A stretch of 64,000 nt of DNA, taken from positions 32,001-96,000 of the forward strand of contig NJBH01000003.1 of the NCBI GenBank assembly GCA_005223125.1. The letters are read 5' to 3'. This document shows, in pieces, positions 27,976 to 34,560 of the stretch; the first letter of the stretch is position 1; every line of letters starts with the position of its first letter. The stretch comes from Promethearchaeota archaeon Loki_b32. Lineage in GTDB: Archaea > Asgardarchaeota > Lokiarchaeia > Sigyniarchaeales > SOKP01. Under the pieces are notes generated by a model. The model did no database searches and was not told the DNA's origin. It saw only the letters and a program-made list of their open reading frames with translations. The position numbers and the translations under genes are program-made.

Positions 27976-28347
27976 TTATTTAGTTTTTAATACGATTGTA
28001 ATTGCTCTCGTTAGGCGGATAACATCCATAACTTTACCTTTTTCCACAGTTATCTGCTCTCGCGAAATCACATGGGTAAAATCTCCTTTTCCATCACATA
28101 CTTTAACGAGTGCATCAGAATCCCCAGACATTACGATGAATGCATCAGATTTAGTACCTTCAGATAAGAGAGCTTTACGATTCTTGATTTCTAAGAAGAA
28201 GGGGTCATCTTTATCTAGATTAAACTGAAAGGACATCTCCCAATCAACATCTTTTCCTGCAATATTCGTAACAAATACCGCTTGAGCTTTTGGAATTGTG
28301 TTTAATTTCTCCACGATTTTACTTAAATTTTCTTTTGCTTGTCCCAT
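27976..28347 (-). CDS. SCP2-like lipid-binding protein
   Basis: SCP2-like size and pattern (FQFNL..FFLEI...ITVEKG); cotranscribed with thiolase and DUF35. Confidence 0.65.
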   Translation of the reverse strand: MGQAKENLSKIVEKLNTIPKAQAVFVTNIAGKDVDWEMSFQFNLDKDDPFFLEIKNRKALLSEGTKSDAFIVMSGDSDALVKVCDGKGDFTHVISREQITVEKGKVMDVIRLTRAITIVLKTK

Positions 28348-28844
28348 TATGATTCTCCTCCTTCATATTCTGACTTTGATATCCAATTTTCATACTCATC
28401 TTCGGGAACAAAGAAAAAATCAGTCATTTTACCCACCCTATCCTTGTTAAAGACCGCCCTAACTTTTTTTCCCTTTTTTATTTTTGAAGGTACTAAATTC
28501 TCAGAAAAAATCCCTTGAAGTAATGCGGTTTCAGCACCATCAAGTTTTATAAACCCTATTCCATAAGGTATCGCTTTGATAAAGGCTGAAGTGGTATACC
28601 ACACTATTGTGCTAACCTCTATTGTTCCAGTTTGTTTGAGTTCCACCCAATTTGCTGGTGTATAGCAATCAGAGCAGTTAATTCTAGGAGGCATCCATAT
28701 CTTTCCACATTTAGTACATTTCGTACCTAATAACTTCTTGTTATTCATTAACTCTATAAAAAACTTTGATTGACCTCCCATTGTGTATTTATACGAAATA
28801 GCAATTTTATCTCGTATTTCATGAGATAGAAATTCTTCACTCAT
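28347..28844 (-). CDS. DUF35 (Zn-ribbon + OB-fold) protein
   Basis: CTKCGKIWMPPRINCSDC; IKLDGA. Confidence 0.85.
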   Translation of the reverse strand: MSEEFLSHEIRDKIAISYKYTMGGQSKFFIELMNNKKLLGTKCTKCGKIWMPPRINCSDCYTPANWVELKQTGTIEVSTIVWYTTSAFIKAIPYGIGFIKLDGAETALLQGIFSENLVPSKIKKGKKVRAVFNKDRVGKMTDFFFVPEDEYENWISKSEYEGGES

Positions 28845-30097
28845 GTTTGTTTCAACCCCTCCTCATTTGCCATTACAATAACTGCGGCATATGCTGCTCC
28901 CGGTCCTCCTATAGAATGCGAAATAGCTCGCCCCTTTTCAATTGTTACTTGATGTTTTCCTGCTTCTCCTCTTAATTGAAGAGCAGCCTCTCCCGTACTC
29001 ATTATCCCAGTTGCACCAACAGCATGTCCACAACCTATTAACCCCCCAGAAGGACAGCAGGGTAATTCCCCTTCAATCCAGGGTCCCTCTCCTGATTTTT
29101 CAAAAGTTTTTTCAATCCAAGAACCACCCTCTCCAAAAGGAACAAACCCAAGCTCCTCATAGGAAATAACTTCCTGTCCTGAGAATGCATCGTGTAATTC
29201 TGCTAAATCTATTAGGCTTTTTATTCTATTATAATCTAGTCCTGCCATTTTATAGGCAGCTTTTGCTGCATATATATTTGAATAAAGTCTTCCCATATCT
29301 TCTCTGTTTCCTATAAAACAATCAGTATTTGCTGCTGCTACCCCAGTAATCCAAACTGGCTTTTCAATCTTTAATTCTCTTACTTTTTCTTCACTTGCTA
29401 GAATCAACGCCGCAGACGCTTCTGAATATAAACAACAATCCAACATTTTGAATGGATAGCAGATTATTCTTGAATTCATGACATCCTCAACGGTTATTTT
29501 CATTGGAGATTGTGCTTTTGGATTATTCATAGCATTTCCATGATTTTTAACACTAACGTAAGCCATTTGTTCCTCCGTTGGATTTCCAAATTCTTCATAA
29601 TGCGCATTTACCATCGACACATAAGAACTCGCTGCCATCATGCCCATAGGGTATTCATATGTCATATCCGCGGAATATGCTATTGCATTTAAAACTTCAG
29701 GTGTAGTAACTCCAGTTTGTTCATCGTAACAGTCATTACATTTTTCAAGACCTATGCATAAACATAAATCTGACAATCCTGAAGCAACTTCTGCATATGC
29801 CATCCTTACTGTGTATCCTCCTGTAGCACCCCCTGTTGCAATACGCGTTCCAGGTTTGTTATTCATCCCAAGATAACTATTTGTAAAAATATCTGGCATA
29901 AATTGCCGTTCAAACAATTCGTTATAGATTCCATAAACGGTTGATTGAATGTTTTTATGAGATATATCAGCTCCATTTTTATTAGCATCTTCTAAGGCAA
30001 GTTTAGTTGCATCATAAGCAAGCTCAAAATAAGTTTTATCTAAATACCTTGCCTTAAAAGGAGTAATTCCAATTCCTATTATTGCTACTTTTTGCAT
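28841..30097 (-). CDS. SCP2-type thiolase-fold protein lacking N-terminal catalytic Cys
   Basis: ATGGATGG in place of ACASG; ELHDAF and GHAVGATG retained. Confidence 0.8.
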   Translation of the reverse strand: MQKVAIIGIGITPFKARYLDKTYFELAYDATKLALEDANKNGADISHKNIQSTVYGIYNELFERQFMPDIFTNSYLGMNNKPGTRIATGGATGGYTVRMAYAEVASGLSDLCLCIGLEKCNDCYDEQTGVTTPEVLNAIAYSADMTYEYPMGMMAASSYVSMVNAHYEEFGNPTEEQMAYVSVKNHGNAMNNPKAQSPMKITVEDVMNSRIICYPFKMLDCCLYSEASAALILASEEKVRELKIEKPVWITGVAAANTDCFIGNREDMGRLYSNIYAAKAAYKMAGLDYNRIKSLIDLAELHDAFSGQEVISYEELGFVPFGEGGSWIEKTFEKSGEGPWIEGELPCCPSGGLIGCGHAVGATGIMSTGEAALQLRGEAGKHQVTIEKGRAISHSIGGPGAAYAAVIVMANEEGLKQT

Positions 30098-30268
30098 ATT
30101 TTACCACTTTTGAAATTTTCTTTTTATTATTTTTAAGGAATAATTATTGATTCATTTTTATTTTAATTAATTATGAAAAAAGTATGAATTGATTCTAAAA
30201 AATTAAATAGGTTAAAAACCAAAATTAATTTAAATACACTTTTTGTGTAAAACTATTAGGGATGAAAT

Positions 30269-30955
30269 TTGCTTAATCGTATAGATCTCAATGGATTCAA
30301 AAAAGTTCAAAAGGAGTATAAAAAAGACCGCTCCAAATGTAAAAAAACATTAGAGGTTAAAGGAAGATGGAGATTAGATGTTGAATATGGTCCACAATTT
30401 GAGACTAAACTAAAAACAGAAAGAGCCGGGGAAATTACGGTACAAACTGATGAAACGATTATCCTTGGAGGAGGAGGAACTGCAGTACATCCTGTTCATT
30501 ATTGCATGGCAGGTTTTTGTGGATGTTTCTCTGCAGCTTTTGCTAAATGGGCTGCAATGGCAGGAATTGAGTTAAGAAAACTTGATATTAGAATAGTTGC
30601 AGATATTGACTTAACCACAGGATTTGGGATTGAGGATGGTATTGATGCCGTGGACAACTATAAACTTGAAATATTTGTTGAGAGTGACGCACCTATAGAA
30701 AAATTAAATGAGGTTCTAGAGGCTACTAAAAAAAGGTGTTTTTGCATGTATTGTATTACGACACCAATAGTTCCTAATATAGATATGATTGTAGAAATTC
30801 CAAAGGAAAAGATGGAAGAAGCTCTTTTTATTTGTCCTACATGCTTCAATAAAACATTGGTCTTTTTAGATGATAATACACAAAAGTGCAAGAATTGTGG
30901 TACTACTGGCTACTTTACTAAACAGCCCGAACCAGAAAAAGTATCTCAAAAATAA
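30269..30955 (+). CDS. OsmC-family protein with C-terminal Zn ribbon
   Basis: TDE...LGGGGTAVHPVHY..GFCGC, KRCFC, then CPTC...CKNC. Confidence 0.75.
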   Translation: MLNRIDLNGFKKVQKEYKKDRSKCKKTLEVKGRWRLDVEYGPQFETKLKTERAGEITVQTDETIILGGGGTAVHPVHYCMAGFCGCFSAAFAKWAAMAGIELRKLDIRIVADIDLTTGFGIEDGIDAVDNYKLEIFVESDAPIEKLNEVLEATKKRCFCMYCITTPIVPNIDMIVEIPKEKMEEALFICPTCFNKTLVFLDDNTQKCKNCGTTGYFTKQPEPEKVSQK

Positions 30956-31033: not shown

Positions 31034-31252
31034 TTGAATTTAATGACAGAAGAATGGCCATATGTTTCTGATAAAGATCAATATGTAAAGACTTTAGAAA
31101 AGGATTTAAAGAAGATTAAAAGTCAATTATACCAGACTCTATTAAACGCAAATAAAACTGTAATCCAAAACCAAAAACTACAAGAGCAATTAAATCAATA
31201 TCAAATTGAAAACTCTAAATTAAAGACTCAGATTAAAGATTTAACTAAATAA
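31034..31252 (+). CDS. Small coiled-coil protein
   Basis: Heptad L/I pattern; gagg RBS-like sequence before the start. Confidence 0.55.
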   Translation: MNLMTEEWPYVSDKDQYVKTLEKDLKKIKSQLYQTLLNANKTVIQNQKLQEQLNQYQIENSKLKTQIKDLTK

Positions 31253-31336: not shown

Positions 31337-32137
31337 TTGAGTATGGAAAAGGGTGAAATATTAGAGGAAAAAAAAGTAATAGAAAATTATGTTGAATCAA
31401 TTTACGTTTATGACAACGCTGGAGTTTGCTTGACAAGTTGCGGAATTAAACCTGAAAATTTGGATGAACATATCGTGTCTGGATTTTTCACAGCAATTAA
31501 GAAATTTGGTCAAAAATTAATTCCTGGAACTGTTGTTAAATCCTTAATAATGAGTGGTCATAAATTATTTTATAATAATTTCGAAAATATTACTTTTTGT
31601 ATTCAATGTTATGACGATCTGCCAAATCAAGTAATTGATTATATTCTAAACAGGATATCAAATCAATTTCTGGAAATTTATCAAGAACGTCTCCCAATAC
31701 GCGATGGAAATATAAGCATCTTCTCAGATTTTAGCACATATTTATCGCAGTTTATGGAACAACCGCTAATTGAAGGTTTATTAGAAGATTTTGGGTATAA
31801 AGTATTATCCGAAGGTGTGATTTTATTTGATGAAATCCGAGAAAAAATTCTTTTTGCAAAAGTTCCAGAAGAATATTCGTCAAGAAAACAAATAGCTATG
31901 AGCGGAATGTTAATTAATTTTGCTAAAAAACTATCAAATGAATATCAAGGTGGAGATGTAAACAGTATATTAATTTCTTCTGAGAATCGGTGGATTTGTA
32001 TCTCGAAAAGAGAATATATTTACATAATTGTTTTGTTTCCTAAAACAAAAAATATCGAACTTAATATAATTGTGGAAAAAACGGAAGAAATATTAGATAA
32101 TATTTTGAAAATGTTAAAAATTGAATTGATAAAATAA
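31337..32137 (+). CDS. Longin-like + roadblock/LC7-like two-domain protein
   Basis: N-terminal 'SIYVYDNAGVCL...IVSGFFTAIKKFG' longin pattern; C-terminal 'GVILFD...AMSGMLINFAKKLS...GDVNSILISSE' roadblock pattern. Confidence 0.7.
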   Translation: MSMEKGEILEEKKVIENYVESIYVYDNAGVCLTSCGIKPENLDEHIVSGFFTAIKKFGQKLIPGTVVKSLIMSGHKLFYNNFENITFCIQCYDDLPNQVIDYILNRISNQFLEIYQERLPIRDGNISIFSDFSTYLSQFMEQPLIEGLLEDFGYKVLSEGVILFDEIREKILFAKVPEEYSSRKQIAMSGMLINFAKKLSNEYQGGDVNSILISSENRWICISKREYIYIIVLFPKTKNIELNIIVEKTEEILDNILKMLKIELIK

Positions 32138-32221
32138 CAATTATAAATTTGAACTGTAATTAAATATTAAGAATAAAATTATAAAGATTTTTCATAAAAT
32201 TTGAAAGTCGAATGGATTTGA

Positions 32222-32779
32222 GTGAAACCAATGAATGATACTCATTTAAAATTTGTATTTAAAATAACTGTAATTGGTGATGGTGGAGTAGGAAAAACCT
32301 CTCTAATTAAAAAATATACCGAAGGTACTTTTGAGGAAGATTATATATCGACTGTGGGTGCCCAATTTTCTTTTTATGACGAAAAAATCAATGGAGATGA
32401 ATGTAAATTATATTTTTGGGATATTGCGGGGCAAAAAGAGTTTGAATTTTTACGTTCAGATTTTTATGAAGAGAGCAAAGCTGCTATTATTGTATGTTCC
32501 CTTGAAGAAAATAATCTTGGCAAAGAAAGTCTTAATCACTTAGTAGACTGGTATGAGGATCTTAATAACAACTGTGGTGATATTCCAGTCGTTATCTTTG
32601 CCAATAAAGTAGACTTAATTGATGAAGAAAATTTGGATGAAGGTTATGTTCAAAGCTTCATTAAAGAGAAGAATACTATTGGAGTTTATCGAACTTCTGC
32701 GAAAACTGGTCAAGGGGTAACCGATGCGTTCAGGAAAATAATAAGAGAACTTTATGAAAAATATAAAAGTAATATATAA
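32222..32779 (+). CDS. Rab-like small GTPase
   Basis: G1 GDGGVGKT, G2 STVG, G3 WDIAGQ, G4 NKVD, G5 SAKTG; no C-terminal prenylation Cys. Confidence 0.92.
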   Translation: MKPMNDTHLKFVFKITVIGDGGVGKTSLIKKYTEGTFEEDYISTVGAQFSFYDEKINGDECKLYFWDIAGQKEFEFLRSDFYEESKAAIIVCSLEENNLGKESLNHLVDWYEDLNNNCGDIPVVIFANKVDLIDEENLDEGYVQSFIKEKNTIGVYRTSAKTGQGVTDAFRKIIRELYEKYKSNI

Positions 32780-32817
32780 AGTACTTTTAACAAAATTTTA
32801 AATTAATTTGAAATTTA

Positions 32818-33156
32818 ATGGAGGAATTTGCACTTAAAATGCAAGCAGAAGGAATTATTGTTTTTGATTCTCTACAAGAAAAAATTATTTTTTCCGAAGT
32901 TCCTCCTCAATTTTCTTCACCTCGTCAAATGGCAATTGGAGGAATGTTAATAAATTTAATCAATAAATTTTCAAATGAATTTGAAGCAGGTGAAGTAAAT
33001 AGTATTGTTATTTCTTCAGAAAATAAAATGATCTCCATCTCAAAAAGAGAACATAAATATATAATCGTGTTATTTCCAATGACAAAAGTAATAGAGCATA
33101 ATATCATTTTAGAGAAAACTGAAGAAATATTTAATTCTGTATGGAATAATGAATGA
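32818..33156 (+). CDS. Roadblock/LC7-like protein (paralog of the C-domain of 31337..32137)
   Basis: Aligns without gaps to the C-terminal ~105 aa of the upstream longin fusion. Confidence 0.7.
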   Translation: MEEFALKMQAEGIIVFDSLQEKIIFSEVPPQFSSPRQMAIGGMLINLINKFSNEFEAGEVNSIVISSENKMISISKREHKYIIVLFPMTKVIEHNIILEKTEEIFNSVWNNE

Positions 33157-33171
33157 TGAAGAATTTAAGAG

Positions 33172-33687
33172 GTGAAAAAAGTGGGACTAAAACGTAAATT
33201 GATGGATAAAATGATGCCAAAAGAGTTTGGATTTATCTCTGGTTTATTTCATGTCGGTGTATTTACTCTTCAATCTAGTATTGATGAGACTTTAGGAAAA
33301 ATTGGATATAGTGATTATATATTTCCCGCAATAAAAGAGTCTATGGAGACTGCCGAAAAATTGGGCATTGAGCCAATCGTAGGAGAAGATATCGAAGATT
33401 TTGGAAAAAGATTTATAAAATTAATGAAAACTTCCTTATTAGTGAAAAATGCTTCACTTAAGAAAAGAGCTGACGGTTCTTATGTATTTTCCTTAAACAA
33501 TTGCTTCATGGCAAGATCAGCTCATACAGTTGCCGGAACAAAGGGTGTCTGTCCGATGGCTATGGTCATGGCAGCTATGGTTGAAAAATATACAAATAAG
33601 GAAGTAATGGTGGAATATTCTGATTTAACTCCTAAGGGGAGTGTTACAAATATCATCACTTCTACGACCGATAATGTAAAAAAATAA
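33172..33687 (+). CDS. V4R/Bet3(TRAPP)-like fold protein
   Basis: Helical N-terminus, then YVFSLNNCFMA...GVCPMAMVMAAMVE...VMVEYS; two-Cys V4R-type pattern. Confidence 0.55.
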   Translation: MKKVGLKRKLMDKMMPKEFGFISGLFHVGVFTLQSSIDETLGKIGYSDYIFPAIKESMETAEKLGIEPIVGEDIEDFGKRFIKLMKTSLLVKNASLKKRADGSYVFSLNNCFMARSAHTVAGTKGVCPMAMVMAAMVEKYTNKEVMVEYSDLTPKGSVTNIITSTTDNVKK

Positions 33688-33906
33688 TTATTAATAATGT
33701 TTTTATTATTCAAATTCAAACATCTTTTTTTAAGCTCAAAAAATGTCGTAAAAAAAAAGCTTAAATATAATTTCTATTATAAAGTTTTTGTAAGAATTCG
33801 TTGTTTATTGCTATTGAATTCAATTATTTAACTTCCGAATTTTTACTCCAATTAATTTAACTATTTAAGATTAGAAAGAGGTGTAATATTTATTTCTCAA
33901 GAGGAT

Positions 33907-34560
33907 ATGAAAGATCTAACTACAGATTTAGATGACAAAGTTGTAAGAGCCCTACAAAATAAGGTTGATTCATACGAAACAGAGATCAGTCAACTAAAAG
34001 ATATTCTAGAAAAAAAGGACGAAGAATTTGCAAATCTAGCAAAATCTAAAGATGATATGAGTTCCGAATTAGAGGAAACTCGAAGTAAGCTTTCAGACTT
34101 AGAAAGTAAAACGGGCGACCTTGACAAATTAAATAGTGAAGTATATGATCTAAAAAAAACAATTACTTTAGAAGAGAATGAATTAAATAAATTGAGGGCA
34201 GAAGTAGATGAATTCAAGCCTAGAGTAGCAGAATTAACTAAAAACAATGATGAATTAAAGAGGAATATTGCTGATAATGAATCTAAAGTTAAAGAATTAA
34301 CCGATGCTCTCGCAGAAAAAGAAAAAGCATTCGATGATCAAAAAAGCAGATTAGAAAAAGCCGAAACAGAATTATCAGCACTAAAACCAGCCGAACCATC
34401 TGAATATACAAGTGAAGAACGTTTAATTTGCCCAAAATGTGGCGCTAGAGGTAAAGATTTAAAAGTTGAAGAAGATAAATCTAAAATTTTAGGCTACGTA
34501 GGTCATTCACCAATGTATGGTAAAACTAATGTTTGTAAAAAGTGTGGAACAACTTTTTAG
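33907..34560 (+). CDS. Long coiled-coil protein with C-terminal Zn ribbon
   Basis: About 160-aa heptad region, then CPKC...CKKC. Confidence 0.75.
   Translation: MKDLTTDLDDKVVRALQNKVDSYETEISQLKDILEKKDEEFANLAKSKDDMSSELEETRSKLSDLESKTGDLDKLNSEVYDLKKTITLEENELNKLRAEVDEFKPRVAELTKNNDELKRNIADNESKVKELTDALAEKEKAFDDQKSRLEKAETELSALKPAEPSEYTSEERLICPKCGARGKDLKVEEDKSKILGYVGHSPMYGKTNVCKKCGTTF

Follow-up and report, generated by a model that had tools for sequence, protein, structure and literature searches.

A six-gene operon in a Lokiarchaeial genome that joins a pan-Asgard longin/V4R pair to an OsmC-linked Rab-like GTPase

Asgard genomes hold dozens of small GTPases and of longin and roadblock proteins, and genome layout gives little guidance on which of them belong together (Tran et al. 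2024, PMC10933270). The locus described here raises this question in a compact form. In a 64,000-nucleotide (nt) stretch of contig NJBH01000003.1, called the window and the source of all coordinates given below, from the 4.13 Mb, 30% GC assembly of Promethearchaeota archaeon Loki_b32, four open reading frames (ORFs) of the + strand follow one another in one direction. They encode a longin-roadblock protein (g1), a Rab-like small GTPase (g2), a stand-alone roadblock protein (g3), and a protein of the V4R/H-NOX/Bet3 clan (g4). Among labelled homologues of the window, the nearest come from Promethearchaeota/Lokiarchaeota, with 80-86% identity. A first-pass annotation took these genes for a candidate self-contained proto-trafficking or signalling switch. 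Do they form such a unit? The answer reached here is that the operon is two older modules joined, and not one self-contained unit: the pair of g1 and g4 usually occurs without a GTPase, while the GTPase travels with two further genes, one for an OsmC-like protein and one for a small coiled coil (g0), often without the pair. The operon is genuine and conserved, and none of the papers searched describes it; each of its folds is already known in Asgard archaea.

The deep core of the cluster is the g1 and g4 pair, referred to as module B, which is pan-Asgard. Of 400 Asgard genomes, 135 contain the g4 family, spread over 45 of 85 genera; it comes in soluble, one-helix membrane, multi-helix membrane, and 245-amino-acid (aa) forms. 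In 60 g4-family loci chosen across these forms, with the seven genomes that have the window's order left out, a longin gene lies no more than 300 base pairs (bp) from the g4-family gene in 55, on the same strand in 51, against a background of 2.8-4.7%. This pairing holds over four subtypes and both gene orders, and g1-g4 stands alone, with no GTPase, in Jordarchaeales, in one Helarchaeota bin, and in several other lineages. In each of two complete genomes a multi-helix V4R gene is paired with a longin gene, convergently in G021 (L164) and divergently in G016 (L165); in G021 an OsmC-g0-GTPase run (L254) lies about 1 Mb from that pair.

Module A is a Lokiarchaeia trio made of the OsmC-like protein, the small coiled coil, and the Rab-like GTPase. 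It was examined in the 18 GTDB genomes whose OsmC orthologue (65% or more) is full-length and has a single domain, and all 18 have g0 and a g2-type GTPase beside OsmC. The g0 orthologues are 58-90% identical and adjoin OsmC at every OsmC locus of this type, and all 21 OsmC-linked GTPases, including g2, form one clade (support 99/96) apart from unlinked paralogues. In the window the OsmC-like, Cys-rich protein (30269..30955, +, 228 aa) matches PF02566 at 8.5e-14 and NF041052 (OsmC_like_Se) at 4.5e-20, the latter below its cut-off, and ends in a Zn-ribbon-like Cys4 motif; g0 (31046..31252, +, 68 aa) has an open frame from 31034. A different type of locus is seen for tandem double-OsmC paralogues (~455 aa, L240-L251), which adjoin a stand-alone 130-aa longin in 9 of 12 cases, with neither g0 nor GTPase.

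The two modules meet in more than one way. Soluble pair B lies inside the operon at five of the 18 module-A loci, and at the sites where it joins module A the GTPase stands before OsmC (L057), after g4 (L094, L095), or, as in the window, between g1 and g3. In five other genomes module A lies divergently beside a multi-helix pair B, whose V4R domain is 22-25% identical to g4. Because the modules meet in several orders and with two pair subtypes, cooperation between them is plausible. The exact order of the window recurs in six other GTDB genomes, belonging to one sister genus, and on about 15 contigs, or about 20 loci, which is more than chance would give; within the genus to which the window belongs, this query found it in none of 53 genomes. 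One scheme for how the orders arose, in which the GTPases that adjoin soluble pair B form a paraphyletic set and OsmC-g0-GTPase results from loss of g1, g3, and g4, fits the tree; since the approximately unbiased (AU) test did not reject monophyly (p 0.118), it was set aside and no order of events is claimed.

All four genes noted at first are real and under purifying selection, and they make up the 3' end of an operon of six genes, which starts with the OsmC-like gene, followed by g0. This upstream start escaped the first-pass annotation, whereas its spacing of 84, 38, and 15 bp between the four genes agrees with a count from the first possible starts. Later true starts for g2, g3, and g4 are indicated by orthologue comparison and ribosome-binding motifs. 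Over 11 loci the ratio of nonsynonymous to synonymous substitution rates (dN/dS) is 0.06-0.16 for all six genes, with 0.06 for OsmC, 0.11 for g0, and 0.16 for g3. Contigs from RNA libraries cover OsmC-g0 and g3, leaving g1 and most of g4 uncovered, and one from a relative spans an OsmC-g0-GTPase junction with g1 not in between; such contigs can show neither transcription nor a single transcript.

Turning to the proteins, g1 (31337-32137, +, 266 aa) has the longin and roadblock folds first attributed to it. Its structure model, with a predicted local distance difference test (pLDDT) score of 75, places a longin domain at about residues 18-150 and a roadblock domain at about 142-262. Structural matches of the former have Z scores of 11.6-14.3, TRAPP C1/C4 included (14.3 for VAMP7, 12.8 for TRAPP 3cue_A), and those of the latter are MK-D1 9jue (12.6), Thor-RB (12.4), MglB (11.9), and LAMTOR (11.4). 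Over the whole chain, Foldseek ranks BLOC-3, Mon1-Ccz1, and CPLANE highest (E 2e-7). Searched as single sequences, g1, g3, and g4 gave no significant Pfam or NCBIfam family.

The stand-alone roadblock g3 (32818-33156, +, 112 aa; 105 aa from its likely start at 32839) is 58% identical over 108 aa to g1 residues 149-256, and it is a duplicate of the C-terminal domain of g1, a relation missed at first. From the likely start it lacks the first roadblock helix, so its topology would be the one termed lamtor-type in Mon1-Ccz1 (PMC8833172). The start-capable codon and the upstream GGAGG are kept in 11 of 11 loci, and this ribosome-binding motif derives from old LEE codons. The g3 copies form a single clade (support 100/99) within the Loki/Hel soluble group and are intact in about 20 loci, with only a frameshifted remnant in L099. 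It is a lineage-restricted, late duplicate, absent from most longin/V4R pairs. A tandem duplication with reciprocal loss would convert the order with the GTPase after g4 (L094, L095) into that of the window and would explain g3. Partners of 345-370 aa found with other g4 subtypes may, tentatively, consist of a longin and two roadblocks (Atlas scores below 0.9): their second part matches the third (68%, E 5e-5), and the match of both to the g1 roadblock has an E of 0.004 or worse.

The second member of module B, g4 (33172-33687, +, 171 aa; 168 aa from its likely start at 33181), is modelled at pLDDT 88 with the helical N-terminal layer and four-stranded sheet of the V4R/H-NOX/Bet3 clan. Its structural matches are tied, with Z scores of 6.4 for V4R (2oso), 6.3 for H-NOX, 6.1 for BcsD, and 5.7 for Thor-TRAPPC3 (7yh2) and Drosophila TRAPP. 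The 16 top matches and all 50 Foldseek matches listed fall within this clan, none of the Foldseek matches at E 0.001 or better. The g4 alignment, too, found no significant family, and no solved structure by sequence at E <0.16, Bet3/TRAPPC3 included; its nearest Atlas clusters are prokaryotic, stand-alone RdxA_C and MJ0207-like proteins (template modelling (TM) score 0.65), and a full-library search returned a long tail of ~155-aa relatives. Given clan-only, tied Z scores and prokaryotic nearest relatives, the name V4R-clan is justified for g4, and of the original V4R-Bet3-like label the Bet3 half is not established. A pattern scan using the wide g4 alignment failed for want of conserved stretches.

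Four g4 residues (H27, C111, H118, and C127) do not vary among the 46 sequences compared, which suggests a putative Cys2/His2 metal site that could give four ligands. The C-terminal tails differ in length and sequence, many proteins stopping at the last strand. In the window g4 is soluble, and none of g1-g4 carries a membrane anchor; most g4 relatives are anchored in the membrane by one or several helices. The surroundings of four distant relatives, mostly on short contigs, had no theme in common and held no gene annotated as longin or GTPase.

Some further features of this family were recorded in passing. Nine orthologue loci (L064, L067, L069-L071, L080, L081, L087, and L092) have ATA where the window has GTG at 33181, and this ATA lies 6-7 nt 3' of a conserved GGTGA, which suggests ATA initiation. 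The multi-helix V4R proteins (L152-L177) have a membrane domain with invariant His49 and His91, possible haem ligands, for which Pfam gave no match; a cytochrome-b-like identity, considered for it on resemblance, was set aside. One multi-helix subtype is convergent with a gene for the catalytic subunit of ferredoxin-thioredoxin reductase (L047:2265-2645 and L049-L056; PF02943, 5e-18 for L047).

The GTPase of module A, g2 (32222-32779, +, 185 aa, likely start 32231), has the full set of G motifs that had been read in it: G1 GDGGVGKT, the G2 Thr, G3 DIAGQ, G4 NKVD, and G5 SAK. It matches PF00071 at E 2.7e-37 and Gtr1_RagA only at 1.5e-5, and its top matches in the PDB are Rab23 (1.4e-27), Rab35, and Rab2, with Thor-Rab (7ezb) at 5.5e-22. 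By sequence g2 is an Asgard Rab-like small GTPase of the Ras family, nearest to Rab. Its putative RabF-like segments are degenerate against the RabF1-F5 consensus, namely VGAQF and KLYFW, already pointed out at first, together with EFEFLR, FYEES, and IVCSLE. Across nine orthologues there is no hypervariable tail, no terminal Cys for prenylation, as had been stated for g2, and no Arg in switch I. It has paralogues of 57-65% identity in its own genome, two of them on contigs C37 and C39, and among the 95 Ras-like ORFs of this genome g2 alone has a g4-family neighbour.

Other loci show variants of these GTPases. At L083:1114-1740 the GTPase is frameshifted after ~107 codons beside intact g1, g3, and g4, as a pseudogene or an assembly error. 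Proteins of 870-880 aa that combine longin-like, GTPase-like, and nitrilase (CN_hydrolase) parts often follow close g2 paralogues (L206-L221, L264-L268). Two ~350-aa proteins (L160:6948-7997, L171:7177-8223) have an N-terminal GP-motif segment (YFDxIIGP) fused to a divergent GTPase; they resemble longin domains of the type found in GTPase-activating proteins (GAPs) and lie 1.4-1.7 kb from multi-helix V4R loci.

How might the joined modules work? Our preferred reading, offered tentatively and with somewhat less than even confidence, is a ligand- or redox-responsive GTPase platform in which g4 is the sensor and g1 the platform, recruited to OsmC-g0-GTPase. A g4 dimer with its putative Cys2/His2 metal site would sense a small ligand or a thiol/redox state and bind g1. 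Paired g1 longin domains would form a docking platform that alters nucleotide exchange on a small GTPase, and g2 would be one client of this platform in the lineage of the window. The helix-less g3 would pair with the g1 roadblock domain as a dispensable accessory, and the output would most likely be stress or redox signalling rather than vesicle traffic. Longin and roadblock dimers are known to serve small GTPases as platforms and not to act as catalysts (PMC3747258); domains of the V4R clan are binders of small ligands, and a Zn site is often present (PMC10933270).

Within this scheme g1 and g4 probably bind each other, a step that rests on synteny and on the complex modelling that the first annotation had suggested. 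A model of two g4 chains with one g1 scored 0.43, against 0.15 for the best control. Of 80 solved pairs 58 attained the mark used for complexes, as did 2 of 110 mismatched ones, but only seven of the 80 attained it with a score of 0.60 or less, as did both mismatches; support for the modelled contact is weak. The runs agreed in at least 82% of contacts, with a partner pLDDT of at least 77. The redox theme is hinted at by OsmC itself, the Cys and His residues of g4, the ferredoxin-thioredoxin reductase, the membrane His49/His91, and the double-OsmC genes beside longins.

Several observations weigh against the preferred reading. A Ras-like gene lies within the ~10-kb locus (about 5 kb either way) in 12 of the 60 g4-family loci, which equals the 20% background, and the loci are related, so the synteny counts are not independent trials. 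Six of the 18 module-A loci, one of them in a complete genome, have no pair B within the flank, and two others end at a contig edge. The genome holds about 85-95 Ras-like and 48 longin-like genes or ORFs, so chance neighbours arise and the client could be another GTPase; since the GTPase travels with OsmC, gene order alone does not make g2 the client. The block is 64-74% identical between the window's genome and a Helarchaeota-labelled contig, more than the 37-43% of housekeeping genes of another contig so labelled, and the shared order may therefore reflect block transfer. The redox neighbours, too, could be lineage synteny.

These points lead to the strongest alternative, which we consider somewhat less probable than the platform but a serious contender: the operon would hold two modules with independent functions, the GTPase working with OsmC and g0, and g1-g4 being a receptor-adaptor for another GTPase or for none, with adjacency due to co-regulation or to hitch-hiking in a transferred block. 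It accounts well for the background frequency of GTPases near pair B, for the high identity of the block across lineages, and for the single clade of the OsmC-linked GTPases. It likewise fits the constancy of g0 and the GTPase in all 18 OsmC genomes, only 10 of which have pair B alongside, and the relative's RNA-library contig on which g1 does not interrupt OsmC-g0-GTPase. It explains less easily why module A adjoins two very different B subtypes in four arrangements, why the GTPase came to lie between the two genes of pair B while purifying selection continued to act on all six genes of what looks like one transcription unit, and why close paralogues of g2 and OsmC also often adjoin longin genes.

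The switch envisaged by the first annotation, with the longin, perhaps with a Bet3-like g4, as guanine nucleotide exchange factor (GEF), the roadblocks as GAP, and g2 as the dedicated client in a TRAPP/Ragulator-like device for primitive membrane traffic, we regard as unlikely. Every fold class it needs is present, the best structural matches of g1 are tri-longin Rab GEFs, g1 plus g3 give the longin/roadblock/lamtor-type order of Mon1 or Ccz1 (PMC8833172), the order is kept in about 20 loci, and the g1-g4 model exceeds its controls. However, this view omits OsmC and g0, the most constant partners of the GTPase, and relies on g3, a late duplicate that is missing from most pairs and has decayed in L099. 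It also meets a g4 whose nearest relatives, by model and by sequence, are prokaryotic stand-alone V4R-clan proteins and which lacks a conserved C-terminal tail, whereas TRAPP exchange relies on the Bet3 C-terminus. Further, g2 has neither a prenylation site nor the switch-I Arg of MglA type, g1 has neither the GP motif nor the Arg finger of longin GAPs, and no window protein of the four has a membrane anchor. Defining features of TRAPP, MglAB, and longin GAPs are absent, and the description as proto-trafficking is not supported.

More doubtful again is the view that the longin-roadblock and V4R pair represents an old complex regulating GTPases, in many cases anchored in the membrane, and shares an ancestor with the TRAPP core or the tri-longin Rab GEFs, the operon keeping its cognate Rab-like client and an OsmC thiol-redox input; if true, it would be the first matched Asgard GEF-GTPase set. 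Least probable is that g3 is a relic of a doubled g1-g4-GTPase after reciprocal loss, retained chiefly to hold the spacing or the coupling of translation and itself without a function, for although g1-GTPase-g3-g4 is the order expected from duplicating the L095 order with subsequent loss, and the missing helix, the LEE-derived ribosome-binding motif, and the frameshift in L099 all fit, g3 has a dN/dS of 0.16 over 11 loci, is intact in about 20, and forms one old clade.

As for the surroundings of the operon, a simple pattern scan placed a TATA-like box ahead of OsmC at 30229..30236 (+) and a second at 30162, which is no evidence of function, and found no such box in the internal spacers. A T7 run at 33725..33731 (+), 3' of g4, is a possible archaeal terminator by pattern only. 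A sigma-70 promoter scan performed at chance level and was discarded as unsuited to archaea. Downstream, and following g4, g5 (33907-34560, +) encodes a coiled coil with a C-terminal Cys4 motif; it lies immediately 3' of the GTPase in the same-genus genomes L260, L261, L270, and L271, a fifth being cut by the contig end, and not directly after it in the sister genus. Upstream and divergent from OsmC, thiolase-like, DUF35-like, and SCP2-like genes (27976-30097, -) have touching or overlapping stop and start codons, a run also kept in L067.

What the operon offers is a small, soluble candidate set of GTPase partners. It names testable partners for a GTPase beside a gene that resembles those for peroxide enzymes, and shows no primitive trafficking machine. 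Moreover, the near-constant adjacency of a longin and a V4R/Bet3-clan gene over Asgard classes is a candidate for the longin-Bet3 contact central to TRAPP. The first annotation knew of no description of the combination, and the papers searched hold none: they include no account of the six-gene operon or the conserved longin/V4R pair, of Asgard archaea with OsmC and a small GTPase, or of Asgard archaea with tri-longin proteins, subscription papers (e.g., Klinger 2016, Zaremba-Niedzwiedzka 2017) being outside the search.

By analogy, the operon may work like a longin-platform regulator, although it is no member of TRAPP, the tri-longin GEFs, MglAB, Rag-Ragulator, or the longin GAPs. The TRAPP core, in which a Bet5/Trs23 longin heterodimer is flanked by Bet3/Trs31/Trs33 and acts as a GEF for Rab1, likewise unites longins, a Bet3/V4R-clan protein, and a Rab-like GTPase. 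The operon has instead one longin fused to a roadblock, a putative Cys/His metal site in place of the palmitoylated Cys, and no conserved counterpart of the long Bet3 C-terminal extension by which the nucleotide pocket is opened. In addition, g2 is unprenylated, pair B usually has no GTPase, and g4 is assigned at clan level, with the Bet3 family (PF04051) not singled out. The tri-longin Rab GEFs (Mon1-Ccz1, Fuzzy-Inturned, BLOC-3) are the top Foldseek matches of g1 and share its longin-then-roadblock chain, and g3 resembles their third longin domain (LD3). They carry LD1 (longin), LD2 (roadblock), and LD3 (lamtor-type) in one chain, whereas g1 has two domains and the third is the separate, late gene g3. 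They also have an alphaX-betaX linker between LD1 and LD2, not seen in the g1 model, where the linker region has a pLDDT of 63-64, and a second subunit with no V4R-clan partner, while the operon has the V4R-clan partner and no second subunit.

Closer to home, Asgard Rab-like, roadblock, longin, and TRAPPC3/V4R proteins (PMC10933270) comprise the same fold classes, again with an unprenylated Rab-like GTPase; a Loki roadblock-longin structure exists as PDB 8yqg. A Heimdall longin-TRAPPC3 fusion has been published, and in MK-D1 the GTPase genes generally lie outside operons with roadblock, longin, or TRAPPC3 genes (Tran et al. 2024, PMC10933270). Thor-TRAPPC3 has four Cys, while g4 has two Cys and two His and no sequence match to it. 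The conserved Asgard operon of LAMTOR-like roadblock, Rab-like, and DENN genes (Liu et al., bioRxiv 10.1101/2020.10.19.343400) also joins a Rab-like GTPase to regulators of roadblock/longin type; in the window, V4R-clan and OsmC genes are present, the link to the GTPase is far narrower in distribution, and among the families listed no DENN match was found for any of the six genes, each of which is otherwise accounted for.

In MglA-MglB and Ragulator-Rag a roadblock fold is likewise encoded beside a small GTPase, as the g1 matches to MglB and LAMTOR recall. MglA has an intrinsic switch-I Arg that g2 lacks, g2 matching Rab/Ran best; Rag has a fused C-terminal roadblock, whereas g2 is a single domain of 182-185 aa; and no counterpart of the LAMTOR1-like tether of Ragulator was identified in the operon. 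The longin GAPs (FLCN, NPRL2, SMCR8, and Asgard kin) have a GP motif before beta2, where g1 has G29 followed by V, I, or L, and a conserved Arg finger, where the g1 longin domain has no Arg column at 50% or more over 46 rows. Finally, the V4R-clan sensors (the MopR/PoxR sensor domains, H-NOX, MJ1460, and the Atlas clusters RdxA_C and MJ0207) share with g4 the fold, at a TM score of 0.65 for the Atlas clusters, and a Cys-based site, and the membrane-anchored forms of the g4 family look like receptors. No DNA-binding, ATPase, or kinase output domain accompanies g4; the link to a longin is found, as sampled, in the Asgard branch only. PoxR and Thor-TRAPPC3 have four Zn ligands and a ligand cavity, and in g4 the residues C111, C127, H118, and H27 are the candidate ligands.

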